64,000 nt of DNA from an uncultured Bacillota bacterium (lineage in GTDB: Bacteria > Bacillota_I > Bacilli_A > RFN20 > CAG-288), in assembly GCA_949290645.1 (NCBI GenBank), contig CASESG010000004.1:10821-74820 (forward strand), in the 5' to 3' direction. This document shows, in pieces, positions 37,687 through 53,234 of this stretch (within the stretch, counting starts at the first letter, position 1; every line of letters starts with the position of its first letter). Position numbers and translations under genes: made by a program. The notes under the pieces are model-generated. The model worked only from the letters and a program-made list of their open reading frames with translations, was not told where the DNA came from and did no database searches.

Positions 37687-38825
37687 AACTCGACCTCCCA
37701 ATGGGCATAGAGAGTCAGCTGACTTCCGTAGACGGGTGTCAGGTCGGTAAACTTGCCGCTGAAGGCGTTCTCCTCTGGAGAAGTATACCATCCCGAGAAC
37801 GTCGATCCTTCCCGGGTCGGGATTCCGACCGTCTCGAAGCTGTTCTCCCCCGTCAGGGGAATGTTGGTCCCGACTTCCAGGGAATCGAGATAGCGGAAGT
37901 TGGATCCGTCCGCAAAGGTTCCGCCGTTGGCGTTGAAGTAGATGGTGCAGTACTCCGTGGTCGTGGTTCCGCCCGTCCCCTTCATCGTGAAGATTGGATT
38001 GCCCCAGCCGCTTGTTCCCTTGCAGTAGACTTCTCCCGTCGTGGTGTTGAGATAATAGTCTCCCTCGTTTCCGATCGATGAGGAGGGAGCGACGTCTCCG
38101 TAGTACCAACGGGTCGACTGCGGACGCGGCAGGCGCAGGATGTCCGTCCTGCCGTCGCTATAGGAGATGATCAATCCATAGTAGTCATCGTCTGACTGGG
38201 CATCCGAGAGGAATATCGTCTCGATTCCAGCGCCATCTTCACTCGGTGGAATCGAGATGACGGTTGGTTCCCTTCCATCGGTATAGGTGATGGTGACCTG
38301 ATAGTTTCCTGTCGCTTCATCGATGACATAGGAAATGGTGTCAATCCCGACTCCATCCTTTCCGTCGGTCGCCTTGGGAATGGTGATCTCCGAGGTCGTC
38401 CCATCGGTGTAGGTGAACGTCAGGATCGTGTTTCCTGTCTCCTCGTCCTGACGGACGTCGACCGAGGCGATTCCCCTTCCCGCCTCGCCCTGAAGGACGG
38501 GGAAAGAGAGGATGGTCGGCTCGACGCTCTCGTCCGTATAGGTGATGGTAAGGACGACCGAATCGCCTTCCATCGCCGTCTGAACGTCCGCGATGCCGAC
38601 GCCGTCTTTTCCGCTCATTCCGGCGGGAAGGGTGACGACGAGGGGAGCGACGCTCGAATCGGTATACGTGATCGTCAGGATCGTGTTTCCCTCTGCGTCC
38701 GTCCCGCTCTGGACGTCCTGGATGAGATAGCCGTCGCTGCCGAAGATGAAGGAGCAGGAGGAAAGGGTCGGTGCCATCGTCAGCAGGCCGAGCGTGAGAA
38801 GCATCTTCGAAAAGGTTCGTTTCAT
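37683..38825 (-). CDS. Lipoprotein with five roughly 38-aa G-x-D-G-x-G-I...TITYTDG repeats and a C-terminal Listeria-Bacteroides (Flg_new) repeat domain
   Basis: AGGAGG RBS. MKRTFSKMLLTLGLLTMAPTLSSC gives a lipobox. The repeats are visible by eye. The C-terminus YCTIYFNANGGTF...GSTFSGWYTSPE...LTLYAHWE is Flg_new-like. Confidence 0.8.
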   Translation of the reverse strand: MKRTFSKMLLTLGLLTMAPTLSSCSFIFGSDGYLIQDVQSGTDAEGNTILTITYTDSSVAPLVVTLPAGMSGKDGVGIADVQTAMEGDSVVLTITYTDESVEPTILSFPVLQGEAGRGIASVDVRQDEETGNTILTFTYTDGTTSEITIPKATDGKDGVGIDTISYVIDEATGNYQVTITYTDGREPTVISIPPSEDGAGIETIFLSDAQSDDDYYGLIISYSDGRTDILRLPRPQSTRWYYGDVAPSSSIGNEGDYYLNTTTGEVYCKGTSGWGNPIFTMKGTGGTTTTEYCTIYFNANGGTFADGSNFRYLDSLEVGTNIPLTGENSFETVGIPTREGSTFSGWYTSPEENAFSGKFTDLTPVYGSQLTLYAHWEVEL

Positions 38826-38841
38826 CGTGCTTTCCTCCTTG

Positions 38842-39939
38842 TCAGGCAACATCATACCACGCATAGAGCTGGAGATCCCTCAGGACCGGAGTCGTGTCGT
38901 CGAAGCGACCGGCGTTGGGATCGTAGGTCGGAGAGGTGTACCAGCCCAGGAAGAGGTCGTCTCCTCGCTCGGGGATTCCGATCTGTTCGCCGAGGATCCG
39001 CCGGGAAAGCCTTTCGCCTTCCTGGACGAAGTAGGAGACGCTTTCCGCGCCCGAAGGCAGGCTTCCGCCCTGGGCGTCGAAGGTCACGGAGTAGTAGTCG
39101 GGCTCTTCCTCCGCGGCATAGCCGTCGATGGTCAGGAGGAAGGTCCACCCCGCCTCCTCCTTGGCATAGAAGTCTCCGGACTGGATGTCGAGGTAGAAGT
39201 CCCCCACCTCGCCTTGGGAGGGCGAAGGCTCTCCCATTCCGCGCCACCATTCCTGGGCGCGGCCGTAGGGGAGTGGAAGGTCGAACGTGCTTCCGTCGCT
39301 GAGGGTGAAGGTATAGACGCAGGAAGTGGAAGTCACTTCCGTGATCTCGACATGGTCGATCGTGACGCCGTCCCTGCCGTCGGGAAGGAAGAAGACCGTA
39401 TCCGGAGAGCCGTCCTGGTAGTGCAGGACGACCCTCGTTCCGCCTTCCTCTTCCGTGACCTCGAAGGAGGAGATGAGGTGCGTCGCATCCACTCCGTCCT
39501 CGCCCTTGGGAAGGAGGAGGGAGGGACTTTGCGTGCCGTCGGAATACTCGAAGACGAGATTCGTTCCGCCCGTCTCCTCGTCCGTGGAGACGACCAGTCC
39601 CGTAACCAGCCGTCCTTCCTCGCCTTGGGCGTTGGGGACGCGGAAGACGACGTCGTCCCTTCCCGTGAGGGAGATCGTGATCACGATCTCCTCTCCCTCG
39701 ACCTGGGCCGTCACGTCCTCGATCGTCGCCCCGTCCGCTCCAGAAGCGGCGCCGGGAAGGCTCAGGACGAAGTCGGGACGGACGCCGTCCTGGAAGGAGA
39801 GGACGACCTGCTGGTTCCCCTGCCCGTCGACTGTGGTCGACACGTCCTCGATCAGCGCCCCCTGACTCGACCCGAAGAGGAGCGAGCAGGAGGAGAGAAG
39901 GAGGGCCAGAGACGGCAGGAAAAGAATTCCCTTCTTCAT
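38842..39939 (-). CDS. Lipoprotein, paralog of 37683..38825 (G-x-DG repeats plus Flg_new domain)
   Basis: MKKGILFLPSLALLLSSC gives a lipobox. Repeats include GADGATIEDV...ITISL and GEDGVDATHL. The C-terminus is YSVTFDAQGGSL...FLGWYTSP...LQLYAWYD. ATGA overlap with the upstream gene. Confidence 0.8.
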   Translation of the reverse strand: MKKGILFLPSLALLLSSCSLLFGSSQGALIEDVSTTVDGQGNQQVVLSFQDGVRPDFVLSLPGAASGADGATIEDVTAQVEGEEIVITISLTGRDDVVFRVPNAQGEEGRLVTGLVVSTDEETGGTNLVFEYSDGTQSPSLLLPKGEDGVDATHLISSFEVTEEEGGTRVVLHYQDGSPDTVFFLPDGRDGVTIDHVEITEVTSTSCVYTFTLSDGSTFDLPLPYGRAQEWWRGMGEPSPSQGEVGDFYLDIQSGDFYAKEEAGWTFLLTIDGYAAEEEPDYYSVTFDAQGGSLPSGAESVSYFVQEGERLSRRILGEQIGIPERGDDLFLGWYTSPTYDPNAGRFDDTTPVLRDLQLYAWYDVA

Positions 39940-42359
39940 CGTCCCTGTCCTCCCTTCAGATCCGAAAGGGGCGGCATCTTGTCGAAGTATTCCGGCGTTC
40001 CCGTCACGTCTCCGTTGACATAGGTCCGGAAGGGATGCGTTCCCGTCACGGCGACGACCGCCTTGGAAAGCGCCTTGAGCAGGGTGTCGAAGAGCTCTTC
40101 TCCCATCGAGGGGGAATAGGCGCCCGAGAGGATCGCCTGGGCGACGTCGATCTCGATCTCGTCGGAGACGTCAGGGTCGTCCGTCGCAAAGTCGACGCTC
40201 GAAAGGTTCTTTCCTCCGCCATAGAAGATGACGTTGGTCGAGACGTAGTCCTCTCCCGACTCCGGATCGCGATAGTAGGCGTCCGAAGCCGTCAGGATGT
40301 CGTTCAGGATCGGCTTGACGGGGAAGAAGTCGTCGATCGTGATGTCGGCCTCGATGCCCTGGCTGGCCATCAGGGTCGAGAGGTTCTGCAGGATCAATCC
40401 CGAAAGGTCCATCGAGTCGAGCGTCTTCCAGTCGTAGAAGCGGACGTCCCCCTCCAGGGTGAGATGGACCGGAAGGGAGGTCCCGCCGACTTCCTGAGGC
40501 GGAAGGGCCATGTCGCCCAGAAGCTCGTGGACGATGGAGGGCATGCCGTTATAGAGGTATCCGCCGTTGAAGAGCGTGTCGAAGGCGATGGAATAGACGG
40601 CCGAGTTGCCGAAGAAGGTGTCGCGGACCGTGACGTCCGTCCCCAGGACGTTTCCTTCCGCATCCCGGTAGCCGTCCGTGTTGTCCAGGGCTTCCTGCAT
40701 GCCCGAAAGGAAGGAGAGGTAGGAAGTGCCGTCCTGCGCCATCAAGGTCTCCTGCATCCAGCGGTCGGCGGACGCATAGGTGGATTCGTCGTTCTCGTCA
40801 TAGAACGTATCCATGAACGACGAGAAGTCGTAGTCGTGGCTGGTTCCGCCAAGCTCGAACTGGACGCGCCGATTCCGGTCGATGCCGTTGTACTCGTTGT
40901 TTCCCAGGTAGAGGAGGAACTCGCCACCGTTCTGGAGGATCGAGTTCTCGATCAGAAGCCCGTCGGAGGAGAAGGCGCGGACGACGTTCTTCCCGTTCTG
41001 GATGACCGAGTTGCGAATCGTGTTGTCCCTTCCCTCGACGTCGACGACCGACCCCGTGTAGAAGAAGTCGTACATGTTGGACTGGTTGTTGGTGTTCTGG
41101 AGACGGACGTCGTCGACGACGATGCCGTCCCCGTCGACGAAGAAGCCGCAGTTGTCCTGCCCGAAGGCCTCGATCAGGGCGTTGGGTCCAATCTCGCCCA
41201 AGGCCACCAGGGCCAAGGGACCCTTGAAGAGGTCCTCCTCGCCTGGGGTCAGAAGGCCCGAAAGTCCGATCGACCCGTGGTTGGGGAAGGCGAGGTTGTG
41301 GAGGTTGATCGAGAATCCGTTTCCGTAGAAGTCCTTCTGGACGTGGACGCCCGCGATCAAGTCGGTGGAAACCGGCGTCTCTGCCACCTCGTTGTACTGG
41401 TCGACGAAGGTCGTCGGATAGGTCGAGGGGAAGGTGTAGACCTCGTCCTCGAAGGAGAACTCCCCGGTCTGGAAGTCGTAATGGCCGAAGAGCTTCATGG
41501 TCTCGGAACGAAGCTCGTCCCGGTAGACCGGGTCCCCTTCCGCGTCCAGGTCGTAGAGATAGGTGTCCCGGAGCGAACCCAGGGACGTCTGCAGGACGAC
41601 CACCTCGCCTTCGGAAGAACGATTGGTGCACCAGAGCAGGTCGTCGTAGTCGCGGACGTTGACGCCTTCGTCGACGACCTCGAAGGAATAGGTCGCCTGG
41701 ATGGAATCGTCCACCCTGGAGACGACGGTCAATGAGGCCTGCCCGCCTTCGAGAAGCGTCAGCTTCTCCGTCTGCGGATCGAAGCGGACGTTGTCCGAGC
41801 ATTCGAAGTCGTAGCTGGCATCCTGCCCGTCGATCATCACTTCGACGGAAAGGGGAATCGTGCTGGCGGACTTCGTTCCGCCGGCGTCGATCTCGTACTG
41901 GCCATAGCGCCGCACCGAGGAGAGGGAGGTGCCGGAGGAAGGAGCCGGATCGTTGATCAGGACGACTCCGTCTTCGTAGCAGTGGGCCTGGAAGGAACGG
42001 GTCTGCGTCCCGGTCTCGTTGCGGACCGTCAAGGTCGCCTCGCCCTCCCCCTGGGCGTAGAGATAGTAGCTTCCGTCCTGCTCGATAACGGAGCAGACGC
42101 CCTCGTCCGATGCCGAGGAGACCTCCCAGAGCAGGTTCTTGCTCTCGTCCTTGATGATCAGGTTCTCGTCGTAGACGGCCTTCGCTTCCAGGGGATAGCC
42201 CTGGTCCTGGATCTGGAAGCCTTCGTTCTGCCGATAGGGGATCTCGATGCCGTCGATGTCGGCCGCGACCTGGTTGATCAGGACCTGGACGGTGACATAG
42301 GTCAGCAGGGAGACGACGATCGGAGCCACCAAGAGGGCGGCGATGGTCTTCTTTTTCAT
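39936..42359 (-). CDS. Membrane-anchored surface protein (807 aa): Ig-like (Big_2-like) modules plus parallel beta-helix repeats
   Basis: N-terminal anchor MKKKTIAALLVAPIVVSLLTYVTVQVL. Ig-like modules ending ...GEGEATLTVRN and ...GGQASLTVVS. Beta-helix-like repeats NTIRNSVIQNGKNVVRAF / LLIENSILQNGGEFLLYL. ATGA overlaps at both ends. Confidence 0.75.
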   Translation of the reverse strand: MKKKTIAALLVAPIVVSLLTYVTVQVLINQVAADIDGIEIPYRQNEGFQIQDQGYPLEAKAVYDENLIIKDESKNLLWEVSSASDEGVCSVIEQDGSYYLYAQGEGEATLTVRNETGTQTRSFQAHCYEDGVVLINDPAPSSGTSLSSVRRYGQYEIDAGGTKSASTIPLSVEVMIDGQDASYDFECSDNVRFDPQTEKLTLLEGGQASLTVVSRVDDSIQATYSFEVVDEGVNVRDYDDLLWCTNRSSEGEVVVLQTSLGSLRDTYLYDLDAEGDPVYRDELRSETMKLFGHYDFQTGEFSFEDEVYTFPSTYPTTFVDQYNEVAETPVSTDLIAGVHVQKDFYGNGFSINLHNLAFPNHGSIGLSGLLTPGEEDLFKGPLALVALGEIGPNALIEAFGQDNCGFFVDGDGIVVDDVRLQNTNNQSNMYDFFYTGSVVDVEGRDNTIRNSVIQNGKNVVRAFSSDGLLIENSILQNGGEFLLYLGNNEYNGIDRNRRVQFELGGTSHDYDFSSFMDTFYDENDESTYASADRWMQETLMAQDGTSYLSFLSGMQEALDNTDGYRDAEGNVLGTDVTVRDTFFGNSAVYSIAFDTLFNGGYLYNGMPSIVHELLGDMALPPQEVGGTSLPVHLTLEGDVRFYDWKTLDSMDLSGLILQNLSTLMASQGIEADITIDDFFPVKPILNDILTASDAYYRDPESGEDYVSTNVIFYGGGKNLSSVDFATDDPDVSDEIEIDVAQAILSGAYSPSMGEELFDTLLKALSKAVVAVTGTHPFRTYVNGDVTGTPEYFDKMPPLSDLKGGQGR

Positions 42360-43960
42360 GCGCGAACCTCCATGGAACGATAGAGCCTCTCCACCACCTT
42401 CGGGCGGGCGAAGGGGACGGGAAGGAGGAGCAGGAGGCCCGGAAGGACAAAGTATCCGTAAAGCGCGTCCTGTGGCGTGCGAAGGAAGGACAAGACAAGT
42501 CCCAGGACGAGCTCCAGGGTCGGAACGAGATAGGACACCAGGGACGAGAGGAAGGAGAGCTTCAGCTCCCGGTCGCTGAGGTCATGAAGGTCGCCCAGAA
42601 GCGAAAGCAGGTTCATCGAGAAAACCAGAAGAAGTCCCAGGACCAGGCTGATCAGGAAGACTTGCCAGGAGACGATTCCGGTCGAGATCAGGACCACCAG
42701 GGAGACAAGAAGGGACAGGGTGGAGAGGGCAAAGGGGCAGAGAAGCTTGACCAAGAGGATCTCCATCGGATGGTAGGGGAGGGTCTTGGTGACCGTCAGT
42801 CCCTTCTCCTCCGCGGAAGGCTTGAGGGCGTTTCCGGAATTGACGATGCCGGCGAAGAAGAGGATCAGGGAGAGGAAGAGGGCATCCAAAGTGGTCGGAT
42901 AGTAGGTCAGGAAGATGTTGAGGTTGGCCGTGAGCATCACCTTCAGGGAGGAGAGGACGACGAAGGAAAGGAAGGGAAGCATGATCAGTACGGAGGTGTA
43001 GGAGAAGGTGTTGGAGCTGTCCTTGAAGAGAAGGAGGAGCTCCTTCTTCCACAAGGCCTTCCTCGGAGAGTCGATGACAAAGGAGGAGACATCGACTGTC
43101 TTCTTGCTCTCGAAGAGGAAGAGCTTCTTGGAAAGGGCGAAGTCCGCCGCGAAATATCCGGCGGACAAGGAGAGAAGGACGATACCCAAGATGACCAGGC
43201 TGTTGGAGAGCATGTTGTCCTTGCCCCAGAAGAAGTCCAGCATGTTGTAGACCGGGAACATGTAGAAGTTGCTGTCGATCAATCCCGAGACGAAAGCCGG
43301 GGAGAGCGTTCCCGTCAGAGATCCGTCGCTGAGGGCGACCAAAAAGAGGTTCAGGAAGACCTGATAGGCGTAGCAGAGACCCACGACGATGCCACAGGAG
43401 AGGAGGAACTGAATCAAATTCCGGTCTTTCAGATAAAGATGGATGACTTGGAAGAGAAGGGAAAGAACAAAGGAAAATCCCATCGATGTCAAGGCGAGGA
43501 TGAAGGTGTAGACAAGAGACATCACATGATACCAATACGGGAAGTGGACCTTGACGCCGAAGGTGATGAGCAAGGGGAGGGAAAGCAGGGAAAGCTCCAG
43601 CCACTGGGCCAGGAAGACATAGAGCATCTTGGAGAAGACCCTCTTCCCCCTGGAGATCGGAAGAGGAGAGACGACCAGTCGGTCTCTCTCGTCAAAGAGG
43701 GTCCTTCTCGCCCTTGTCGCCCCTTCCAGAATGGCCAGAAGAAAGATCAGGAAGAGGAAAAAGCAGACGACTCCGAAAGGAGCGATGTAGGAATAGCGGA
43801 TGAGCTTGTCGTACAAGGCATCGGTCAAGAAGGAAAGAAGGGCGATCAAAAGCCCTCCTCCGACAAAAGTCAGAAGAAGCTTGAGGGCAAAGAGGGCAAG
43901 AGACGACGTTCCTTCCTTCCGGTTGAGCCGGAATTCCTTAAACAAAAGCTCGAAGATCAT
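42356..43960 (-). CDS. Polytopic ABC-exporter permease-like protein (534 aa)
   Basis: Start was re-picked at ATG 43960 (MIFELLFKEFRLNRKEG), an ATGA overlap with the ATPase stop. About 12 hydrophobic segments. The track ORF is over-extended to 44461. Confidence 0.75.
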   Translation of the reverse strand: MIFELLFKEFRLNRKEGTSSLALFALKLLLTFVGGGLLIALLSFLTDALYDKLIRYSYIAPFGVVCFFLFLIFLLAILEGATRARRTLFDERDRLVVSPLPISRGKRVFSKMLYVFLAQWLELSLLSLPLLITFGVKVHFPYWYHVMSLVYTFILALTSMGFSFVLSLLFQVIHLYLKDRNLIQFLLSCGIVVGLCYAYQVFLNLFLVALSDGSLTGTLSPAFVSGLIDSNFYMFPVYNMLDFFWGKDNMLSNSLVILGIVLLSLSAGYFAADFALSKKLFLFESKKTVDVSSFVIDSPRKALWKKELLLLFKDSSNTFSYTSVLIMLPFLSFVVLSSLKVMLTANLNIFLTYYPTTLDALFLSLILFFAGIVNSGNALKPSAEEKGLTVTKTLPYHPMEILLVKLLCPFALSTLSLLVSLVVLISTGIVSWQVFLISLVLGLLLVFSMNLLSLLGDLHDLSDRELKLSFLSSLVSYLVPTLELVLGLVLSFLRTPQDALYGYFVLPGLLLLLPVPFARPKVVERLYRSMEVRA

Positions 43961-44784
43961 TCCTTCTCCTCCTCCACGTCGAACTGGCGGAAGATCTCCT
44001 TGAGCCTTCTTCTTTCCATCGGCTGCTCGCGGAAGTCGATCGAGCGCTTGATGATGCCGCTGTCGAGGATTCCGACCCGGTCGCAGATCTTGGAGACGAA
44101 GTCGATGTTGTGGGAGGTCAGGAAGATCGTCCTTCCGTTGGCCTTGAGATCCTTCATCAGGTTGAAGAGCATCTCGTTGACGACAAGGTCGAGACCGACC
44201 GTCGGCTCGTCCAGGATCCAGATCCTCGGATTGTGGATCAGGGAGGCGATGAGGCAGATCTTCTGCTTCATGCCGTGGGAATACTCGCGAATTCTCTTCT
44301 TCAGGTCCTGGTCGTTGAAGCGAAGGCGGGTGGCCAGAAGATGATAGTTGGTGACGAACTGGTTCTGCTTGACCCCATAGGCACCGGCGACGAAGGAGAG
44401 ATATTCCTTTCCGGTCATGACCTCGTAGGCCGTCGGTTCGCTGGCGACATAGCCAAAGCATCTCTTGGCTTCCTCAGGCGAAGCAAGGACATCGTTTCCG
44501 AAGATCTCGATCGTCCCTTCCTGGAACGACTTGAGACCGACCATGCAGTCGATGGTGGTCGACTTTCCGATGCCGTTTCTTCCGATCAAGCCGAAAGCCT
44601 CACCCTCCAGGACAGAGATGTCGACTCCCCGGAGCACCTCAAAGGAGCCATAGGACTTCTTCAAGCCATGGATCTGGATAGCCGTCTCCTTCTCCTTCTC
44701 GAGCGGAAGTCCTTCTTCCTTCCTGGAGATCGACTCTTCGGTAACGGGCCTTGTGCCCTTGAGCATCTTTGTCAGTGGATTCAT
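43957..44784 (-). CDS. ABC transporter ATP-binding protein
   Basis: Walker A GRNGIGKST, signature YSHGMKQK, Walker B IWILDEPTVGLD. Start was re-picked at ATG 44784 (ATGA overlap). Confidence 0.9.
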   Translation of the reverse strand: MNPLTKMLKGTRPVTEESISRKEEGLPLEKEKETAIQIHGLKKSYGSFEVLRGVDISVLEGEAFGLIGRNGIGKSTTIDCMVGLKSFQEGTIEIFGNDVLASPEEAKRCFGYVASEPTAYEVMTGKEYLSFVAGAYGVKQNQFVTNYHLLATRLRFNDQDLKKRIREYSHGMKQKICLIASLIHNPRIWILDEPTVGLDLVVNEMLFNLMKDLKANGRTIFLTSHNIDFVSKICDRVGILDSGIIKRSIDFREQPMERRRLKEIFRQFDVEEEKE

Positions 44785-46163
44785 CGAGACCTCCAAAGGC
44801 CCTTGAGCCAGACCAGGACCTTTCCGCGATTCTCGATCACGGAGAGGAAGGCGTGGCAGCTCGGGCAATAGTATCCGTCCTCCCTCTTGCTCAGATGGGC
44901 GTTGTGGCAGACAGGACAGCTGTAGTCGAAGGAATGACCCTCGTCGAACAAGAGGAACAAGGAGGCGAGGTAGTTTCGCATCCTTTCCTTGGATGCCCTC
45001 TCACCCGGAACAAGGACAAGGACATGGTCCTGTCTCTTCTCCTCGAGAAGGGACATCGTCGCCAAGGTGACATCGTCGACCTTCCGCTCCCGGACTTCCC
45101 GGAAGAGGGAAGAGACTTCTTCCTCTTTCACCAAGGGAAGGACCTTGAGCAGGCGGTCGGAGGAGGAGAGAGTGGCGTTGTTCTCCCTATCGAGAAGGAC
45201 AGATCGCAAAAGATAGCCGTCCTTGCGCTCGTAGAGGGAGAGGGTGAGATTCTTTCTCCTTGCGAAGAGACACTGGAAGCGGACTTCTCCCTCCTCGACA
45301 CGATAGCCGTAGGGAGTCAGCTCAAAGCCCTCTTCCGCGAGCTCCGAGAGAAGAGAGAGCAGGACGAAGGAGCGATATCCTTTCTCCTCTTTCTTCCCCT
45401 CCTCGTTTCTCTTTCTCAGCTCGTCGACATAGAAGCGGTAGCAATAGGAATAGAGAGGATGGTGAATCAGGACGTTCGTCGCCTGGATCTGTCCCTTGAT
45501 GGGGAACAGGACCAGGTCGTGATAGAACTTGCTGTTCTTCAGGCGCTTGAGATAGGTCAAGGCCTGATGGAGCAAGAGGTCGACATCCTCTTCCTTCTCG
45601 ATGACAGAGCGGTCGTCGAGATAGGGAACCTTGAGGTCGAAGCGGGAGAGCAGGTCCGTCGGCTCATAGCTGAGCCTCTTGTCCTTCCCGTAGTCGAGAA
45701 GAGAGCCTTCCCTTCTTCCAAAGAGATGGATCAAGTCGTGGATCTCACGGTCGACCATGTCGATCAGCATGCAGAGGAAGCGGTTCTCGTAGGTGTTGTC
45801 GACATCGATCTTCTCCGTCGAGTGGACCAGCTCCGGAACCATCGACCCGTCCTTCTTGCGAGACCAGAAGGAAGGCTCGCGGACCGTCTTCCGGAAATCC
45901 TCTTCCGATAGAGGACCCGAGACCTCGACCCTCTTGACTTCCTCTTCCCGGGAAGTGACGATGGCCGGATTCATGACGATGGAGAGGATGCGAGTCAATA
46001 AGGCGACCAGTTTCCTCGTCCAGGAGAGAAGCTTCTTGGGATCTTCCTTTCGATAGAGGTCGACCTTGCCCGTCTTTTCAAGGGAAAGGAGATGGAAGAA
46101 GTTCTTCTCCCCTTCCATCGAGACCAGCTGACGGTGGAGTTCGGACAAAAGCTGTTCTCTCAC
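44781..46163 (-). CDS. McrC/DUF2357-like partner protein with a C-terminal Zn-ribbon and no evident PD-(D/E)xK nuclease motif
   Basis: Lies directly downstream of the McrB-like gene (GTG 46163 is 1 nt after its TAA). The TYENRFL motif is recalled from DUF2357/McrC-like proteins. The C-terminus is CPVCHN...CPSCH. No D...(D/E)xK block was seen by eye. Confidence 0.45.
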   Translation of the reverse strand: MREQLLSELHRQLVSMEGEKNFFHLLSLEKTGKVDLYRKEDPKKLLSWTRKLVALLTRILSIVMNPAIVTSREEEVKRVEVSGPLSEEDFRKTVREPSFWSRKKDGSMVPELVHSTEKIDVDNTYENRFLCMLIDMVDREIHDLIHLFGRREGSLLDYGKDKRLSYEPTDLLSRFDLKVPYLDDRSVIEKEEDVDLLLHQALTYLKRLKNSKFYHDLVLFPIKGQIQATNVLIHHPLYSYCYRFYVDELRKRNEEGKKEEKGYRSFVLLSLLSELAEEGFELTPYGYRVEEGEVRFQCLFARRKNLTLSLYERKDGYLLRSVLLDRENNATLSSSDRLLKVLPLVKEEEVSSLFREVRERKVDDVTLATMSLLEEKRQDHVLVLVPGERASKERMRNYLASLFLLFDEGHSFDYSCPVCHNAHLSKREDGYYCPSCHAFLSVIENRGKVLVWLKGLWRSR

Positions 46164-46164
46164 C

Positions 46165-47979
46165 TTAGAGCCTCTTGATGAGCTTGCCGACGTTGTGACG
46201 CGTCAGCGGGAACTTCTCCTTTCCGTACGTCTCGTCGATCAGATCCAGAAGGTCGAGAAGACCCTGGCGGACATAATCCTCGAAACGGCCCTCGAGCTTG
46301 TAGAGGACCTTGCGGGCAAAGAGGAAGTCAAGCGCGTCTTCCTTTGTTCCTCCGCAGCTGACATAGACCGGGACAAGGATCTCGATCTGGTTGAGGACAC
46401 GGTTACCGAAGGTGATGTCGAAGGTGTCCGAGAGGAAGGAGATGAGCTTGGCGAAGCGGGCGAAGTCCTCCTTCGTCAGGCGATTGCTCTCGGTCGAGAG
46501 AGCCTTGGCATAGAGGGCGTTGAGTCCCTTATAGGTCAGATGGATCGGAGCGACCTCTCCCTCGACCTCGAAAGGTTCGTTGCGGTCGTCGAAGGAAATC
46601 GTGATGGCACGGTCATAGACCTTGTCGGTGATGGTGTAGGTCGAGTCGTCCTTGTTGGCCGTTCCGATGAACCAGGTGTTCTCCGGGATCTTCAGGACGC
46701 CGTTCTCGAGATGGCTGGGCCCCTCGAATTCATAGGGAACCTGAAGGATGCGGAGCTTCCACTTGTCGATCGGGTATTCCATGATGGAGAGGAAGTCGGC
46801 GAAGTAGTATTCGACACGGGAGATGTTGACCTCGTCCAGGACCATGATGTTGATGTCGTTGGGGCGATAGGTCATCTGATACAGACGCTTGAGGAAGTCC
46901 GTCTCGTTGTACTTGCGGGAGAAGTCGTTGAAGAAGCCGAGCAGGGAAGTGCGGTCTCTCCAGGAAGCCTGGACCGGCTCGAAGAAAGATTCCTCTCCGA
47001 TGTATTCGGAGAAGTAACGGGCCAAGGAAGACTTACCCGTTCCCGAGAGGCCTTCCAGGATCAACAGACGGCTGGCCGCCATGCCCGAGAGGAAGGCGCG
47101 GATCGTGTCGATGGAGAAGTAGAGACCCTCGTTCTTCGCCAAGTAGCGACGGAAGTCCTCCGAGATCTCCCTGAGGGAGAGAGTCGTCTCGCTCTGGTTG
47201 AGCGGAGTCCTTGTCTCCTCGACCTCGTCGATCGTGCAAAGGCCAGGGAAGACATATTCCTTGGAGCCAAGCTCCGCTTCCGTCTGCTCGTCCTTCTCCT
47301 CCCCGTCCAGAGAGTTCGTCAGGTTGGAAAGGGCCGAGGAGGAAGGCCCCAAGGCCGAAGCCAGGGACAATCCATCGGCCGAGGCCAGAGTCGGTTCCTG
47401 CTTGTTATCCTGCTCATCGTCGATATCTTCCGTATCCTCGCCCTTGTTGAAGCGGAAGGGCTTGTCGATGTTGCGGAAATTGACGACCATCATGCAGAAG
47501 AAGAGAATCGGCAAGGCCAGGACGACGAAGAGCAGAGTGCCGATCAAGAGAGACTCGCCGAAGAAGAGGAAGCTGTTTCCGATCGCTCCCTCGCCCCTTC
47601 CGATCTGAGCCAGGAAGGAAAGGCCCAGCCAGAGAACGGCGCCTCCGAAGAAGGTCAAGGAGTAGATCAGGATCCACTTGGGAGTGAACAGCTTCTTTTC
47701 ATAAAACATGGCCAGGCGCATCTCGTAGATCAAGGCGCCGGCACAAAGGAATGCGTACACGCAGAACAGTCCCAAGACCATCCAGCCCTCGAAGCTGACC
47801 GATACCGAAGGAAGCTTCAGCATGGAAAACAGCACCTTCCGGAGCGGGCTGTTTTCGCTGATCAGGGCATTTCCCGTGTCGGCGAAGAATCCCGAGCCAG
47901 CCACGAACAACAGATAGAAGAACAGCAACGACAGGAAGATGTAGTTCTTCCTTGTAAAATGAGTCTTTCGTTTCTTCAT
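46165..47979 (-). CDS. Membrane-anchored McrB-family AAA+ (AAA_5) NTPase
   Basis: The N-terminal 170 aa or so contain 4 TM helices, followed by an acidic linker. The NTPase core reads LEGLSGTGKSS (P-loop), VLDEVNISRVEYYFADFLS (Walker B / McrB signature), WFIGTANKDDST, DKVYDRA. GGGAGG RBS; ATGA overlap with the sipW stop. Confidence 0.75.
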   Translation of the reverse strand: MKKRKTHFTRKNYIFLSLLFFYLLFVAGSGFFADTGNALISENSPLRKVLFSMLKLPSVSVSFEGWMVLGLFCVYAFLCAGALIYEMRLAMFYEKKLFTPKWILIYSLTFFGGAVLWLGLSFLAQIGRGEGAIGNSFLFFGESLLIGTLLFVVLALPILFFCMMVVNFRNIDKPFRFNKGEDTEDIDDEQDNKQEPTLASADGLSLASALGPSSSALSNLTNSLDGEEKDEQTEAELGSKEYVFPGLCTIDEVEETRTPLNQSETTLSLREISEDFRRYLAKNEGLYFSIDTIRAFLSGMAASRLLILEGLSGTGKSSLARYFSEYIGEESFFEPVQASWRDRTSLLGFFNDFSRKYNETDFLKRLYQMTYRPNDINIMVLDEVNISRVEYYFADFLSIMEYPIDKWKLRILQVPYEFEGPSHLENGVLKIPENTWFIGTANKDDSTYTITDKVYDRAITISFDDRNEPFEVEGEVAPIHLTYKGLNALYAKALSTESNRLTKEDFARFAKLISFLSDTFDITFGNRVLNQIEILVPVYVSCGGTKEDALDFLFARKVLYKLEGRFEDYVRQGLLDLLDLIDETYGKEKFPLTRHNVGKLIKRL

Positions 47980-48941
47980 TTCTTCTCTTCCTCCCTTTCT
48001 CCGTCATCCGTCCCTTCTCTCTTCCCGTCTTCTTCTTTCTCGCCCTTCTCTCCCGTCAGGGGGAGGAGGGCGTACGTCTTGTCCCGATAGGTCAGTTCCT
48101 CCTGGAACCGGACCGTGACCTTCTCCCGGCTCTCCTCGTCCTTCGCATCGAAGGGGAGCTCCGAAAGCAGGTATTCCTTCCGCTGTTCCAAGGCCTGTTC
48201 GTACTTCGAGGAGAAGCGATCGAACATCACGAAGCAATAGAGGATGGAGACGATCGTGATGATTCCGGCATTGGACTGCAGGAAGACGATCAAGGATCCG
48301 ACGCCCTGGATGCGGAAGCCGTTGTAGCGCCCCAGGATGTCGTCATAGGAGAGCAGGCCTTCGTAGGTCAGTCCCGTGTCCGACGCCGCATTGGCGTCTC
48401 CGCGGGTGACGTAGCCTCCTTCGCGGATCTCGACGATGCGGTGGACGATGATCTCTCCTTCCATGCTCCGATAGGCGACGACGTCGTAGAGCTGAACCTC
48501 TTCTGGGCTGCGGTACCGTTCGATGCCGATGATGTCGTAGGCATCGAACTGGTTGTCGAGTCCGTTGTCGAACAGATAGTCGTTCTCGTCGTTCTTCTCC
48601 GACATCGACCCCGTTGCAATGACAAGGGGCGCCTTGTCTCCGAAGAAGAGGACGCCCGAATTGAACCGTGCCACCAACGTCATGACGAAGAAGGCAGCCA
48701 CCAGGGCCAGGACCACGTATCCCGCAATCTTGAAGGACAGGGTCAAGGCCTTCTTCTTCCTGTCGCCGCTCTTCTCCTCGCTGATGGCAATGTCTTCCAG
48801 AAGGGCCGGGTCTTCCCGGCCCGTCAGGACGTTGTCCGTCTCCGAACGATAGTAATGCCGGAAGAGGAACGTGAAGGCCACGCAAAAGCTCAGAAGGCAG
48901 ACAATGGTGACAACCAGAGAAATGATTTCAATGGAAGACAT
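47976..48941 (-). CDS. sipW: Signal peptidase I, archaeal/SipW type (S26B), with extra N-terminal TM region and acidic C-terminal tail
   Basis: Catalytic blocks ATGSMSE (Ser), IVHRIVE (His) and TRGDANAASD match the SipW pattern SGSMEP / HRIV / KGDNN..D. A C-terminal TM is followed by a roughly 90-aa Glu/Lys-rich tail. Confidence 0.75.
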   Translation of the reverse strand: MSSIEIISLVVTIVCLLSFCVAFTFLFRHYYRSETDNVLTGREDPALLEDIAISEEKSGDRKKKALTLSFKIAGYVVLALVAAFFVMTLVARFNSGVLFFGDKAPLVIATGSMSEKNDENDYLFDNGLDNQFDAYDIIGIERYRSPEEVQLYDVVAYRSMEGEIIVHRIVEIREGGYVTRGDANAASDTGLTYEGLLSYDDILGRYNGFRIQGVGSLIVFLQSNAGIITIVSILYCFVMFDRFSSKYEQALEQRKEYLLSELPFDAKDEESREKVTVRFQEELTYRDKTYALLPLTGEKGEKEEDGKREGTDDGEREEEKK

Positions 48942-48978
48942 TCAGAAAAAGCGAAAGAACGATCCTCGCTCTCCTGAT

Positions 48979-49653
48979 TTATGCCGTGACAGCGGCAATC
49001 GAAATGGAAATCTGATTGTCGTTATAGCCAGCAACCGCGTTGAGCGCATTGACGGCGTCGTCCAACGTCTTCCCCGTCTTTCCGCCGAAGTAGTCTTCCG
49101 GATTGGCCGGATTGTGGTTATTGAAATACGAACCCCAGGCGAACTCGACCGTGACGGTCAAGGTCGTTCCCGAATAGGAAGGAGTGATCGTCGCTTCGCC
49201 GCTCGCCGTTTCGCTGGCAGCCGCAACCGTTCCGTTTGTGACCGTGGCGATAGTGACCGCAGTCCCGGTGGTGCAGGGCGTGACGATGTATTCGGAATTC
49301 CAGCTCGGCCAGGTCGGAGTCATCGTAACCGTGCCGTTTGCCGTGGCGACTGCCGTAACATCGATGGTGAAGGCAAAGGACATGTCTTCCGTAGATGTCT
49401 CACTCCTGATCGCTCCCGCGTCATCCTCGACAGGGCCGAACCTGACGGTTCCATTGCTAGGATCCAACGCCGGCGTTCCCAAAGTGATCGTTCGGCGATC
49501 GTCGACGTTGTCCGCCGTCACGCTGATGTTGTCCAAAGTCTGACTTGTTTCCGTGGAAATCACCCACGAGGCATAGCCGATGCCGGCCGTGGCAACGGCG
49601 GCGCAGGAGATGAGGGAGATGGCAAACAGCTTCTTATGCTTGATCTTCTTCAT
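48979..49653 (-). CDS. Small secreted protein (224 aa) with the GYASWVI motif; paralog of 49675..50445
   Basis: AAAGGAG RBS. N-terminus MKKIKHKKLFAISLISCAAVATAGIGYASWVIS. Shares a C-terminal block (F.WGSYF...NP..Y) with the upstream gene. Confidence 0.85.
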   Translation of the reverse strand: MKKIKHKKLFAISLISCAAVATAGIGYASWVISTETSQTLDNISVTADNVDDRRTITLGTPALDPSNGTVRFGPVEDDAGAIRSETSTEDMSFAFTIDVTAVATANGTVTMTPTWPSWNSEYIVTPCTTGTAVTIATVTNGTVAAASETASGEATITPSYSGTTLTVTVEFAWGSYFNNHNPANPEDYFGGKTGKTLDDAVNALNAVAGYNDNQISISIAAVTA

Positions 49654-49674
49654 GATTTCTTTCTCCTTTCTTGC

Positions 49675-50445
49675 TTAGGCAACGTTTTCCGTCAAGGTGG
49701 AAGTCAGGATCAGGTCCGCGCTGTCGGAATCCTCGCCCGTGATGGCTTCGTTCATCTTGTTCAGCTCATCGATGACGCCCTGCAGGTGCGCCGCGTTTGC
49801 CGCCGACAGCGTTCCCTTCTGGAACAGGCCGTTGTAATACGTCATCGGGTTCAACGCGTCGAAGTAGCTTCCCCACGTGAAGGTCAAGGTCTGACCGCTC
49901 AGCGTCGCAAGATAGGTCCCGTCCGACTGCTCCTCGAAAGCGTCCTTCGCAATCGTGACGGCCGCCGGAGCCTCCAAATAGGTGAAGCTCTCCTCATCAC
50001 GAATGTTCAGCGTATCGTCCGAGGTCGTGACTTTGCCGGTCGAAGTCTCATCGAAGGCGAAGGTGACAGTCACGCCGCTGTCCAGCAGGCTGTTCACGTA
50101 GTCGGCACCCGCCGTGACCGTGATCGTCGCCGTCACGGTAAGGTCTTCGTTGCGCGAAGATGCGTCTTCTCCGAGGGTCACGACGGAGGACGTGATGCTG
50201 GAATCCGCTCCCGAGGTGTCCTTTCCGCCCAGGAAGAGGGCCTTCTCGGTCAGATTCACGGCCAGGGTCACCGAATCGTTGCGGGCCGTATCGACGGCGA
50301 CGGTCACATCGTCCTTGTCGTTTCGGATCTGATTGCCGATGATCCAGGTTGCGAATCCGGTCGCGATAAGCGTAACGGACGCAAAGCCGATGATGCCACC
50401 AGCAATCCACTTCTTCCTTCCAACGGATTTGTTGTTTTTCGGCAT
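49675..50445 (-). CDS. Small secreted protein (256 aa) with the GFATWII motif; first gene of the operon
   Basis: Start was re-picked at ATG 50445 (AAAGGAGAACACT-ATG). N-terminus MPKNNKSVGRKKWIAGGIIGFASVTLIATGFATWIIGN. Contains TFTWGSYFDALNP. Confidence 0.85.
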   Translation of the reverse strand: MPKNNKSVGRKKWIAGGIIGFASVTLIATGFATWIIGNQIRNDKDDVTVAVDTARNDSVTLAVNLTEKALFLGGKDTSGADSSITSSVVTLGEDASSRNEDLTVTATITVTAGADYVNSLLDSGVTVTFAFDETSTGKVTTSDDTLNIRDEESFTYLEAPAAVTIAKDAFEEQSDGTYLATLSGQTLTFTWGSYFDALNPMTYYNGLFQKGTLSAANAAHLQGVIDELNKMNEAITGEDSDSADLILTSTLTENVA

Positions 50446-50583
50446 AGTGTTCTCCTTTATGTCTATAGCCAATATAAGATTAGGATACATTTGACCGCTG
50501 GAATCGTCAAATCGCTTTCAAGCTCGAAGACAGATAATGACGCGGCTTTTCGGCCAAGATTGTAAAATTTCCAGAAATCCAGA

Positions 50584-50592
50584 CCCCCCCCC
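50584..50592. repeat. Homopolymeric C9 (G9 on the operon strand), about 140 nt upstream of the first operon gene
   Basis: Read directly: aga ccccccccc gac at 50581-50595. No ORF crosses it. Confidence 0.95.
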
Positions 50593-51372
50593 GACAAATT
50601 TTAGCTTTTTGCTCTCAAATAATCAGGATCAATCGAGGCTGTTTTCAATTAACTTTTTTTCACGATAAATAAACAAACGATCAAGTTTTCGTTTTCTTTT
50701 TCGAACTTTTCGTGAATATCATTTCCATCGCTTCCTTATTTCGCATCTCGTCAATCAGTTATTCTTTTGTTTTCAATCGTCCACGGAAATCGAAAGACTC
50801 AATTCTTTTAGACATTCTTGTTGTTTTGTCAGTTCTGGCGATATATGGCAATGATGAGTGTACGAACCTTAATCTCCTCTCAAATTGGAGCATTCCGATT
50901 GGATATGAACACGGACAAAAAAGAAGAATTCCGTCATCGGAAAAGCATCAATCCGCTTGCGATAATATCGTTTTCTGAGACATGCCTTTCCTTCATATGC
51001 ACATGGCTTCACAAAGTTGATACGAAAGATCTGTCAAAGAACATACAAAAGAGGGGGGCTTTAAACCATTGAAATGACATATATATAAAATCTCAAATAT
51101 TTTGCAATAGGTTGTTAGTTGTATAATACCTTTCATTAAAATTATTTTATCTTTTCTTCTCGATTGTCAATTAAATTGTTTAAATTGTGGAGATACTCTA
51201 AGGCTCTTTCAAAGGACGCAAGGCCTTTTCCGAAAGCCACCTAGAACTAATTGCGAACAATATGCAAACTTGCGAAACGGCTATTGAATTTCTCAAAGCG
51301 AAAAAATGGACGCCTTAGAAATTATCTAGAAATTTTATCGTTTTTTCGATAGCTATCGAAAGATATCAAACG

Positions 51373-51735
51373 TCAGTTCTGGCTTCTCTTCCGGTCGTTG
51401 TAGATGTCCTCATCCTTCTCGGAGACATGCTCCAAACCCGTCCGGAAGAGATCCTTGATGTGGTTGTCCGTCAAGACATAGAGAACCTGCTTCCCCTTTC
51501 GATAGTAGGTGACGATGTCATGCTTCCGAAGGACCTGGAGCTGGTGAGAGACACGGCTCTGGGAGAGATTGAGGATCTCCGAGATGTCGTTGACACAGAG
51601 CTCATGCTTCAAAAGCAAAGAGACAATCGAGAGCCTTGTCGCATCCCCGAAGATGGAGTAGAAGGAAGAGAGTGTCTCAATGCTCTTTGCGGAAAGAAGC
51701 TGATCCTGAATCGTCTTTTTCGTTTCGTTGTCCAT
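51373..51735 (-). CDS. ArsR/SmtB-family transcriptional regulator
   Basis: Winged HTH FGDATRLSIVSLLLKHELCVNDISEILNLSQSRVSHQLQVLRKHDIV. Start was re-picked at ATG 51735 (MDNETKK). Confidence 0.8.
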   Translation of the reverse strand: MDNETKKTIQDQLLSAKSIETLSSFYSIFGDATRLSIVSLLLKHELCVNDISEILNLSQSRVSHQLQVLRKHDIVTYYRKGKQVLYVLTDNHIKDLFRTGLEHVSEKDEDIYNDRKRSQN

Positions 51736-52195
51736 AATGACATTATAGTCCGTAGCGAGAAACAAGGAAAAGGACGCTTTGCACGATCTTCATTCCAATC
51801 GAGTCTCTCAATGCTCTTCTCAAATCCTCCGTCGTTGCCATTGAACTTTTGACAAGAGAAAGAGCGACACAATCGTATTGCTGACGAACACCTCCGAATC
51901 TTTTGAACTATAGTTGAAGTGCAACATCGTGAGCTTTTGACAGCATTCAAAACCATGATAGCACTGACCCATTTGGCAGGCTTCAAGCATCCGAAATGAA
52001 GTCCCTCCATTTCTTTCTTCGACCAGCGAGAACTTTCCGCGGTTGTGTTTGTTCACTCTCCCACTTGCGAAAAGACGAATGTCAAAAAAAGTCGCGAATG
52101 CCCCCATCAAAATGGGTTATGCTCGAATGCTCTATGAGATTGTAGCATGCGATGTAAGAGGACAGCCAAACAATAAATAATAGGATGGTGACGTA

Positions 52196-53234
52196 ATGAC
52201 TAAAAAGAAAGACAACAAACTGCAGATTCAAAACAGCACAGTGGATTTCCTTGTGATTGCAAAAGACGCTCACGAGGACGGCATAGAAGTCCGTGTTCAA
52301 AGTCACGATGTATGGCTGACACAAAAGGCAATCGGCCAGCTTTTTGATGCGGACAGGAGCGTTGTTGCATAGCATCTCAAGAACATTTATGAGAGCGGCG
52401 AATTGTTCGAAGACTCAACTTGTGCAAATTTTGCACAAGTTGCAGAGAACGGAAAAACATCAATACAAATTTTATTCTCTGCCCGCTATTATCGCCGTCG
52501 GTGACCGGGTCAACTCCAGCAGGGCGACAGAATTCCGACAATGGGCAGCAAAGGTATTGGATACCTTTGCCAAACAGGGATATGTCTTGGATAAAAGCAG
52601 ACTGATGAATGGCCAAATCTTCGATGAGGATTATTTTGACCACCTGATTTCCGAGATACAGGAAATCAGGGCAAGTGAACGCCGCTTCTACCAGAAAACC
52701 ACAGATATTCAACGGCGCAGAACAAGAGGCATTATGCCGTTCGGAAATACAGCAGCCGAAATTATTGTGGCAAGGACAAATCGTACAAAGGAACATATGG
52801 GTTTGACATCTTGGCGCAACGCTCCTAACGGGAAAATCGTAAACGCCGATGTATCAATCGCAAAAAATCTACTTATCGGCGGAAGAGAGGAAGAAGCTAA
52901 ACGAGATTGTCACGATGTATCTGGACTACGCTACAAGGCAGGCCAGACGGCATATTCCCATGACAATGGCCGATTGGGCTTCCAAACTAGATGCGCTTCT
53001 GCAATTCACCGATGTCGAGATTTTACAGGACAAAGGGAAGTCACAGCAACAATCGCCAAATCATTTGCAGAAAGTGAATTTGAGAAATACCGAATCATCC
53101 AAGATCGTTTGCACCAAAGCGATTTTGACCGTCTAGTAGCCAGCGTGAATAAAGAAAAAGAATCTCAGCAACACCTCGGGGAAGAGGAAAACGCGGCAAG
53201 AGAAAAGAAGCAACTCGAAAATAGTGAAGTGTAA
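52196..53234 (+). pseudogene. RhuM-family (virulence-protein-like) gene with an in-frame TAG and at least two frameshifts
   Basis: Frame 1 reads MTKKKDNKLQIQNSTVDFLV...VWLTQKAIGQLFDADRSVVA*HLKNIYESGEL (TAG at 52370-52372). The sense continues in a second frame (AIIAVGDRVNSSRATEFRQWAAKVL...ASERRFYQK) and then a third (EERKKLNEIVTMYLDYA). Confidence 0.7.

Follow-up and report, generated by a model that had tools for sequence, protein, structure and literature searches.

A membrane-anchored McrB-like protein and its nuclease-less DUF2357 partner in a SipW-type surface-protein operon of uncultured Bacillota

The McrB-like motor and its DUF2357 partner

A stretch of 64,000 nucleotides from an uncultured Bacillota bacterium (contig CASESG010000004.1 of GenBank assembly GCA_949290645.1; hereafter ‘the window’) carries a cluster of co-directional minus-strand genes that runs from approximately 50445 to 30109 and forms a roughly 20-kilobase operon. 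Two adjacent genes of this operon are the subject of this report. The first (46165-47979 including the stop codon) encodes a 604-amino-acid membrane-anchored protein with a McrB-like AAA+ nucleoside triphosphatase (NTPase) core, which we call the motor. The second (44781-46163 including the stop codon, GTG start) encodes its partner, a 460-amino-acid protein composed of a DUF2357 region, an alpha/beta domain and a zinc ribbon. An earlier reading of the window, here termed the original prediction, had placed both open reading frames within 44781-47979 and had quoted the motifs GTGKSS, LDEVN..RVEYYF, GTANKDDS and D..YDRA for the motor and TYENRFL and CxxC...CxxC for the partner. Both frames are present there on the minus strand, and every one of these motifs occurs in the translations.

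The membrane domain of the motor (residues 1-171; 47467-47979, minus strand) begins with a conserved basic stub (MKKRKTHFTRKN; KTHFTRKN) that is followed by four predicted transmembrane (TM) helices. Hydropathy analysis locates hydrophobic segments at residues 12-34, 59-89, 102-126 and 135-171, and an AlphaFold2 model built on an alignment of 62 sequences, with a mean pLDDT (the predicted score of the local distance difference test) of 76.7, places long helices at residues 10-33, 63-94, 100-124 and 130-169. Positive-inside analysis finds the positive charges at the N-terminus, in the loop spanning residues 87-101 and after TM4, a distribution that indicates an N-in/C-in topology and therefore a cytoplasmic AAA+ domain. 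The membrane domain is joined to this core by an acidic low-complexity linker (residues 172-262; 47194-47466, minus strand) with 22 D/E versus 6 K/R at residues 176-262. The linker is predicted to be disordered, with pLDDT values below 50 at residues 177-235, and it ends in a conserved VFPGLCTID segment in which, among the 62 sequences, F244, P245, L247 and D251 are invariant. Hydropathy, charge and the structural model thus agree on the four N-terminal TM helices and the acidic linker that had originally been described. A search with the membrane domain against 1.84 billion representative proteins returned 36 matches, all of which are proteins of ~560-630 amino acids or obvious fragments, and so the domain appears to be private to the motor family. 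No modified-base DNA-binding domain is found at the N-terminus of the motor, which is occupied by the four-helix membrane domain.

The predicted cytoplasmic portion (residues 263-604; 46168-47193, minus strand) consists in the model of an alpha/beta AAA+ domain at residues 290-462 and a helical lid at residues 483-603, and its translation contains the segments LEGLSGTGKSS, MVLDEVNISRVEYYF, FIGTANKDDST and DKVYDRA. Among the 62 aligned sequences, Walker A (G313-S318, in GLSGTGKSS) and Walker B (V380-E383, in MVLDE) are invariant, as are N442, D444, R457 (in YDRA) and G525-N526-R527, and D445 is retained in at least 90%. Residues N442-K-D444-D445 form the NxD signature of the protein. The invariance of these motifs argues for an active NTPase.

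McrBC is the textbook example of a restriction motor driven by guanosine triphosphate (GTP), and the motor reads as a distant relative of its McrB subunit. It scores 17.8 bits against Pfam AAA_5, below the cut-off of 22 bits, and 20.1 bits (E = 2e-4) against the NCBIfam McrB model PRK11331, for which the cut-off is 637. On these scores the protein appears to be a distant McrB subfamily and not a McrB equivalog. E. coli McrB chains (6hz4, E = 2e-4) are its sole sequence matches in the PDB, and its best model match is the PADLOC defence-candidate family PDC-M26A (E = 2.6e-35), which also matches plasmid-encoded CnuB-type proteins. Foldseek aligned the predicted structure with MCM, RavA, BrxL, Thermococcus McrB (6ut3, E = 1e-3), NorQ, CbbQ and dynein; these matches would assign the motor to the AAA+ clade with a helix-2 insert, although they do not single out McrB. 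Assignment to the McrBC family by hidden Markov model, as originally proposed, therefore succeeded only in part. The window proteins themselves fall below the AAA_5, McrB and DUF2357 cut-offs, whereas their orthologues and the profile comparisons support the assignment, which rests on these because the direct scores are weak. A MoxR/RavA-type ATPase was also considered and was ruled out, as the partner is a DUF2357 protein rather than a VWA protein and the best relatives of the motor are McrB-type.

The partner evolves much faster than the motor, as evident by mean pairwise identities of 26% and 48.5%, respectively. Word-indexed homologue searches recovered only 7-9 partner proteins, even with a 40-sequence profile, and the 80 orthologues analyzed here were extracted from fetched loci. 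Conservation is found in the N-terminal half of the protein, where W100, P110, Y125-E126-N127, T229-N230 and Y238 vary little or not at all and 94% of the sequences have R78. This half contains the DUF2357, or McrC N-terminal-like, region (approximately residues 54-250; 45414-46004, minus strand), including YENRFL, which lies in the segment DNTYENRFL, and TNVL..H..YSYCYRFY. The window partner reaches 14.4 bits against Pfam DUF2357, below the cut-off of 23.3 bits, but the model is matched by 25 of 40 partner orthologues (best E = 3.9e-10), with the homologues P0128 (37 bits) and P0124 (26.4 bits) above the cut-off. A comparison by hhalign between the partner profile and the DUF2357 region of CnuC-type proteins gave probabilities of 95.6-98.5%, with E-values down to 2e-15.

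The middle domain of the partner (approximately residues 260-410; 44934-45386, minus strand) is of a different character. Across the 80 orthologues, no column between residues 250 and 412 reaches 55% D/E or K/R and only hydrophobic positions are kept, from which we conclude that the protein has no PD-(D/E)xK active site. Pfam gave no PDDEXK match. The original claim that the partner lacks a PD-(D/E)xK block is therefore upheld. Whether a nuclease fold persists without its residues was addressed with an AlphaFold2 model of the partner modelled singly, on eight sequences, with a mean pLDDT of 70.4 and a poorly predicted DUF2357 part. The middle domain, with pLDDT values of 80-90, shows the order helix, beta-meander, helix, strand, helix, strand, and it is possibly a degenerate PD-(D/E)xK fold. 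The order of elements is compatible with such a fold, but Foldseek found nothing in the PDB at E < 0.1, neither McrC nor a nuclease. The hhalign alignment with CnuC-type proteins also stops at the first helix after DUF2357, so that the middle domain can be related to an inactivated nuclease only tentatively.

The C-terminus (44784-44933, minus strand) carries a zinc ribbon, CPVC...CPSC, whose four cysteines (C416, C419, C433 and C436) are invariant among the 80 orthologues, with P417 retained in 97% and W452 in 86%. The first cysteine pair has the form CPxC, weak matches to zinc-ribbon families of Pfam were obtained, and the protein ends in a Trp/Arg-rich tail, the basic and aromatic VWLKGLWRSR. 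Helices of the partner model reach at most 23 residues and there are no Pfam coiled-coil matches, so no coiled coil is apparent by these measures, which did not include a dedicated coiled-coil predictor.

These features bear on one explanation for the two genes, which is that they are a plain restriction cassette of the McrBC type, autonomous and present in the operon by chance. The similarity of the motor to E. coli McrB, weak but specific, and the adjacent DUF2357 partner are what such a cassette would display. However, the motor has a membrane anchor instead of a DNA-binding N-terminal domain and the PD-(D/E)xK residues are absent. We consider this explanation extremely improbable, in view also of the genomic arrangement described below.

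Operon context, conservation and exchange of the locus

The pair is packed tightly between its neighbours. The stop codon of the upstream gene, which encodes a SipW-like signal peptidase, overlaps the motor start codon in an ATGA sequence, and the partner stop codon overlaps in the same way with the ATG (44784) of the downstream gene for an ATP-binding cassette (ABC) transporter ATPase. A 1-nucleotide spacer separates the motor stop codon from the partner GTG, with AAGAGG upstream. Through these junctions, the pair is translationally coupled to the peptidase upstream and to the ABC transporter downstream, and the overlaps with sipW and the ABC ATPase gene that had been proposed to lock it into the operon are indeed present.

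The peptidase (321 amino acids; 47976-48941, minus strand) is a signal peptidase I of the SipW type, that is, of the endoplasmic reticulum/archaeal type. It matches NCBIfam TIGR02228 with E = 1.2e-14 and, at 54.4 bits, exceeds the cut-off of 51.85. Its Ser-His dyad (S112 and H169), R170, G183 and D184 are invariant among 61 orthologues. The ABC ATPase (275 amino acids from the ATG at 44784; 43957-44784, minus strand) matches Pfam ABC_tran (E = 1.9e-24) and is followed by a polytopic permease (534 amino acids from an ATG at 43960; 42356-43960, minus strand) whose orthologue in locus L001 carries Pfam 12TM_1.

A scan of one genome per species yielded 582 stretches that encode a motor relative. 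The best 80 of the 582 were combined with three loci fetched earlier via homologues to give a synteny set of 83 loci (L001-L083). The motor relatives of these best 80 are near-full-length (~600 amino acids) and 41-78% identical to the window protein, and 76 of them start within the first 10 query residues. Labels among the relatives include Bacilli, Mollicutes, Acholeplasmatales, Anaeroplasmataceae, Onthovivens, Enteromonas, Scatosoma, Clostridia and Christensenellaceae. The family may be present in hundreds of species, an estimate that allows for the possibility that the remaining stretches include CoCoNuT-type proteins (see below); full-length relatives with invariant motifs occur in at least 80 species-representative genomes, far more than expected by chance.

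Searches of the 83 loci by tblastn with the window proteins detected SipW in 79, the partner in 82, the ABC ATPase in 78, the permease in 75, the 807-amino-acid protein encoded after the permease in 72 and the lipoproteins in 60-63. The order of the core genes is the same in nearly all, and the partner gene lies directly 3′ of the motor gene in 82 of 83. The survey of neighbourhoods that had been called for thus places the pair nearly always between SipW and the ABC transporter. Pairwise-identity matrices for 61 loci further indicate that the motor, partner, ABC ATPase, peptidase and 807-amino-acid protein have diverged together, with Spearman coefficients of 0.60-0.79. The occurrence of the pair at the same position in at least 78 loci, down to 41% identity, and its ATGA overlaps with both neighbours are difficult to reconcile with a restriction cassette inserted by chance. 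Together with the anchor and the lost nuclease residues, they contradict that explanation, and the combination that the original prediction had named beforehand as its own refutation, an intact nuclease in a pair that is variably present within otherwise conserved operons, was not found. A search of 2.9 million viral contigs revealed no relative. A phage or plasmid element was likewise ruled out, as the viral contigs were empty and plasmid matches were limited to CoCoNuT-type relatives with 28-40% identity. The originally proposed co-option of a McrBC-like motor into a membrane-associated role other than restriction is in agreement with the missing nuclease residues, the fixed position, the co-divergence and the empty viral contigs.

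Comparison of the window with two related genomes indicates that the locus is a mosaic. With its closest genome (L004), the window shares 93-98% nucleotide identity over the signal-bearing proteins described below, the peptidase and the 807-amino-acid gene. An exchanged block between 42600 and 47980 interrupts this similarity, with identities of 78% for the motor, 66% for the partner, 81% for the ABC ATPase and 80.5% for the permease. The breakpoints are sharp, falling at the start codon of the motor gene and ~250 nucleotides before the end of the permease gene. Relative to a second genome (L097), the motor, partner and ABC genes are 85-90% identical, near the background of 92.7% in the recF-gyrB flank, and it is the region 47976-50445 that has diverged, with 67% for two signal-bearing proteins and 76% for the peptidase. 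The locus thus consists of two independently exchanged modules, one comprising the substrates and the peptidase and the other the motor, the partner and the ABC transporter. The composition of the second module ties the pair functionally to the transporter, and the exchange of both modules shows that the whole locus diversifies by recombination. Loci for surface structures often diversify in this manner.

The occurrence of a diverged allele of the motor, the partner and the ABC genes in operons that are otherwise almost identical is also a pattern common at conflict loci, and this introduces a second explanation, which is that the pair is an envelope-linked immune or conflict module. Like its CoCoNuT relatives, the pair would sense foreign RNA or DNA, with the zinc ribbon and the degenerate nuclease domain of the partner as the sensor, and would act via the membrane domain and the ABC transporter, for example by abortive infection or by blocking a phage whose receptor is the surface structure. 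Its place beside the genes of that structure would simply have become fixed. However, the block containing the substrates and SipW is exchanged just as readily, and mosaicism is therefore a property of the whole surface locus. A fixed position and co-divergence with neighbours across very distant species are also unlike mobile defence islands, and relatives are absent from the viral contigs. We regard an immune role as unlikely, and return to it below in light of the known relatives of the pair.

The proteins presumed to be handled by this locus are distinguished by their N-termini. Six window proteins, all encoded on the minus strand, begin with a hydrophobic signal that, by motif scan, ends in G-[FY]-[AS]-[ST]-[WF]-[VIL]-[VIL]. 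Two of these secreted proteins are encoded upstream of the peptidase, one of 256 amino acids (49675-50445; ...TGFATWIIG) and one of 224 amino acids (48979-49653; ...GIGYASWVIS). The other four, with GF/GY-x-x-W/F signals, belong to a distal cluster at 30109-37686 (37012-37686, 34328-37000, 32832-33452 and 30109-32835). In the wider set, the GF(A/S)(S/T)W-type signal is present on 89 open reading frames in 45 of the 83 loci. Its layout is a basic n-region, a hydrophobic stretch of ~17-25 residues and then the G-[FY]-[AS]-[ST]-[WF] motif, and its carriers are either small (~200-290 amino acids) or very large (890-1085 amino acids). The small carriers have in common a C-terminal WGS.F...NP..YYN motif. 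The signal is probably dedicated to the SipW-like peptidase of the operon and would serve in sorting or cleavage. A type IV prepilin-like signal was ruled out on the grounds that the motif closes the hydrophobic stretch instead of preceding it. The G-x-x-[ST]-W ending resembles ...GGGTW..., which we take to be the corresponding part of the TasA/camelysin signal. Neither the small secreted proteins nor the 807- and 890-amino-acid proteins have a sequence match in Pfam, NCBIfam or the PDB.

Several additional genes complete the operon. The 807-amino-acid conserved protein (39936-42359, minus strand), located 3′ of the permease, is membrane-anchored or secreted. It is followed by two lipoproteins of 365 and 393 amino acids (37683-39939, minus strand) with lipoboxes LLSSCS and LSSCS. 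They carry repeated modules of ~45 amino acids with the pattern G.DG.GI....LTITYTDG....I.P, and their C-termini hold a Listeria-Bacteroides repeat domain (Flg_new, E = 1.5e-5). Inside the distal surface-protein cluster is a gene (33510-34343, minus strand) for an Lgt-like prolipoprotein diacylglyceryl transferase, recognized by a 29% tblastn match and by Pfam LGT on its equivalent in L001. With Lgt-like and SipW-like genes, the operon has its own versions of enzymes that act in general protein processing.

Relation to CoCoNuT, CoCoPALM and other known systems

The closest annotated relatives of the motor are the CnuB-type GTPases of CoCoNuT systems, which belong to the NxD clade of McrB. Its best plasmid matches by tblastn are 36-40% identical over more than 80% of the core, with E-values down to 2e-58, and are proteins of ~800 amino acids annotated as ‘AAA family ATPase’ or ‘hypothetical protein’. 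In alignments with 34-36% identity, the segment FIGTANKDDST of the motor pairs with FIGTANHDETT and FVGTANTDEST of the plasmid CnuB-type GTPases, and the NxD motif also aligns with NTAD of E. coli McrB. The pattern given for the NxD clade is N-x-D-[D/E] (PMC11090510). Immediately 3′ of each plasmid relative is a gene for a protein of ~610-750 amino acids that is annotated as DUF2357 in three of five records and matches Pfam DUF2357 in a fourth. On the 5′ side are genes for a large ‘AAA domain-containing protein’, which in the Nostoc record is annotated as ‘serine/threonine protein kinase’, and for a hypothetical protein. We read these four-gene units as the CnuH-CnuE-CnuB-CnuC arrangement of Type II CoCoNuT. 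By its NxD AAA+ core, DUF2357 partner and CnuC-like order of partner domains, the pair appears to belong to the NxD branch that contains CoCoNuT, for Type II CnuC has a zinc ribbon, with CPxC motifs, after an inactivated PD-(D/E)xK domain (PMC11090510). The resemblance has clear limits. The motor has no long GTPase coiled coil but an acidic, disordered linker, and it is anchored in the membrane; no helicase, HEPN domain or other nuclease was found among the 10 largest operon proteins; and the genes are chromosomal with fixed synteny, unlike plasmid- or island-borne CoCoNuT.

This kinship supplies the remaining arguments concerning an immune module. The closest annotated relatives are plasmid-borne defence candidates of the CoCoNuT type, the best model match is a PADLOC defence candidate, and the CPxC zinc ribbon is kept as in CnuC (PMC11090510). 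However, nuclease-less CnuC proteins are, as reported, always found beside another nuclease (PMC11090510), and Pfam and NCBIfam revealed no recognisable nuclease among the 10 largest operon proteins, including the partner, nor any HEPN effector.

The same relatives bring into view a third explanation, in which the pair is a regulatory or tethering device. The partner would bind mRNA or DNA of the operon by way of its degenerate nuclease domain and zinc ribbon, and the membrane-anchored ring would hold it at the membrane, either coupling translation of the exported products to their insertion site or gating expression of the locus. CoCoNuTs are predicted RNA binders (PMC11090510), domains of the nucleic-acid-binding type have been kept in the partner although catalysis has been lost, and translational coupling is tight inside this long series of genes for exported products. 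An invariant energy-consuming AAA+ core that is co-inherited with an ABC transporter would nevertheless suit mechanical work, be it on proteins or on lipids, better than passive tethering, and we judge a tethering device to be quite improbable.

A link between McrBC derivatives and surface structures has a precedent. Bell et al. (2024) noted NxD McrB GTPases fused to TM segments that are linked to signal peptidases and pilus assembly, and in a single paragraph named them CoCoPALM, for "pilus assembly linked to McrBC", leaving them uncharacterised and deferring detailed treatment to a later paper (PMC11090510). Our literature search found no such later paper, and a paper that combines McrB or McrBC with SipW or a signal peptidase names mcrBC only as part of an E. 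coli strain genotype. The original prediction described McrBC pairs as normally cytoplasmic restriction systems, a statement that overlooks CoCoPALM (PMC11090510). Given this precedent the idea of co-option is not new, though the architecture and operon described here are.

CoCoPALM is the closest named kind for the pair, from which we set it apart by the published description. Both have an NxD-type McrB-like GTPase fused to TM sequence, a DUF2357 partner, an association with a signal-peptidase-family gene and a proposed link to surface-filament assembly rather than to restriction. The published fusion is FtsB-homologous, with one TM segment and a coiled coil, whereas the motor has a four-helix anchor without a Pfam FtsB/DivIC signal. 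Indeed, DivIC/FtsB gave no match in 16 members of the motor family even at E-values up to 1, although a remote match to TM4 and the charged helix may lie below the sensitivity of Pfam. Coiled coils are usually present in both published proteins, in contrast to the alpha/beta domain and zinc ribbon of the partner described here.

A sister system that fits the CoCoPALM description better was encountered in short contigs (L095, 102-4871; L084, 157-2281; L090-L096). It consists of three consecutive genes, the first encoding a 574-amino-acid protein with TM helices and a motor-like domain with a degenerate Walker A (LSAGAFE), the second a 432-amino-acid NxD GTPase with one TM helix and an acidic linker that is 39% identical to the window motor, and the third a DUF2357 protein with a coiled coil of ~250 amino acids and without the zinc ribbon. 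The homologue P0129 likewise has a long coiled coil. In L084, a further TM/acidic-linker gene lies 3′ of the DUF2357 gene, which suggests tandem units.

The better understood systems offer a guide to mechanism. In McrBC, the N-terminal domain of McrC enters the pore of the McrB hexamer, where a basic residue contacts the aspartate of the Nx(x)D motif and stimulates hydrolysis (PMC11090510). The motor pair shares with the E. coli and Thermococcus complexes (6hz4, 6ut6 and 6ut3) a helix-2-insert AAA+ domain, Walker A and B motifs, Nx(x)D and a McrC-N-like partner encoded immediately downstream. It differs in that direct similarity amounts to only ~20 bits, a membrane domain replaces the DNA-reading domain and the partner is without nuclease residues.

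SipW-dependent fibre operons (tapA-sipW-tasA of B. subtilis and sipW-bsaABC of C. perfringens) resemble the window operon in combining an ER-type peptidase with several paralogous secreted proteins, but they have neither an AAA+ motor nor an ABC transporter. For one of their products, BsaC of C. perfringens, efficient secretion requires type IV pilus proteins (PMC11580942). Type IV pili themselves provide a functional analogy, in that PilB/PilC comprises a hexameric cytoplasmic NTPase and a polytopic membrane component that together bring precursors anchored in the membrane into a structure on the cell surface. There is no homology, however, and the substrates here carry a Sec-type signal rather than that of a class III prepilin, and the peptidase is of the SipW type rather than the PilD type.

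Proposed role in the cell envelope

Considering the evidence as a whole, we propose that the motor and its partner are a derivative of a McrBC-type machine, from the NxD branch, that no longer cleaves DNA and that, in uncultured gut Bacillota, has become a permanent part of a SipW surface-protein operon as an envelope assembly or export motor. We hold this reading in full with slightly better than even confidence. Its structural and evolutionary part we consider very probable, and the assembly role itself we would put a little short of even.

By analogy with McrBC, six motor subunits would form a ring beneath the membrane, held there by 24 helices on flexible acidic tethers, and the DUF2357 segment of the partner would enter the ring and switch on nucleotide hydrolysis. 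Hydrolysis would power work at the membrane, done jointly with the ABC transporter, on the proteins bearing the GF(A/S)(S/T)W signal, which are possible fibre or pilus subunits, and on the lipoproteins of the operon. Extraction, export, polymerisation and quality control are candidate tasks, and DNA cutting would not be the output. A more specific and more tentative version, which we think possible but would not bet on, is that the ring, the DUF2357 partner and the ABC transporter together drive a machine that, in a large group of uncultured gut Bacillota, assembles or exports SipW-dependent surface fibres or a surface layer. It would represent a novel class of biogenesis system for Gram-positive surface organelles, with a domesticated restriction motor as its source of power. 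In such a system, the mature N-terminus (S/T)W(I/V)(I/V) of the substrates could serve as a donor strand or a recognition tag.

A number of points weigh against the proposal that the pair is an envelope assembly or export motor. To our knowledge, SipW/TasA systems need no NTPase of their own. The retained zinc ribbon and the possible degenerate nuclease fold of the partner suit nucleic-acid binding better than protein export. No similarity of the secreted proteins to TasA, to pilins or to any Pfam or PDB entry was detected, and a profile of 46 small proteins with the GF..W signal likewise retrieved no Pfam family and, at E-values up to 10, no TasA or BsaA chain from the PDB. The signal peptide and the setting beside SipW are therefore the only grounds for describing the products as a fibre or pilus. 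The loci were all found via their motor gene, which leaves operons that lack the pair outside the sample, and the best 80 of the 582 motor relatives are all from uncultured, metagenome-assembled genomes, with no cultured host seen. Finally, in two loci labelled UBA6449/UBA6380 (L038, 8656-13034; L072, 8189-13029), the motor pair occurs without SipW or ABC genes nearby. There it follows a gene whose secreted product contains G-x-x repeats like those of collagen; in L038, a gene for a multi-pass membrane protein also precedes it.

What is new at this locus is the four-helix anchor, the composition of the operon, the GF..W signal class, the co-inherited ABC module and the two-module mosaicism. 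If the proposal is true, a nuclease-less, membrane-tethered McrBC that is found lineage-wide would clearly exemplify the conversion of a defence machine to housekeeping duties in the envelope, and the CoCoPALM class, so far a name, would gain an operon, a substrate signal motif, an ABC transporter and catalytic residues. The bacteria concerned belong to gut and rumen lineages that are abundant but represented solely by metagenome-assembled genomes, and a surface system of this kind would be relevant to their interactions with hosts and phages.

An Rfam scan of the window returned zero matches. The DNA between the operon and recF (50500-55200) has a guanine-plus-cytosine fraction of 0.44-0.48, compared with 0.55-0.61 in the operon, and contains an ArsR-type helix-turn-helix gene (51373-51765, minus strand) and an apparently disrupted open reading frame (52344-53234, plus strand); this stretch is possibly a small inserted island. 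The genes recF, gyrB, gyrA and serS follow consecutively at 55208-62435 on the plus strand, with the recF-gyrB flank also present in L097, and the surface-protein operon thus adjoins typical origin-proximal housekeeping genes.

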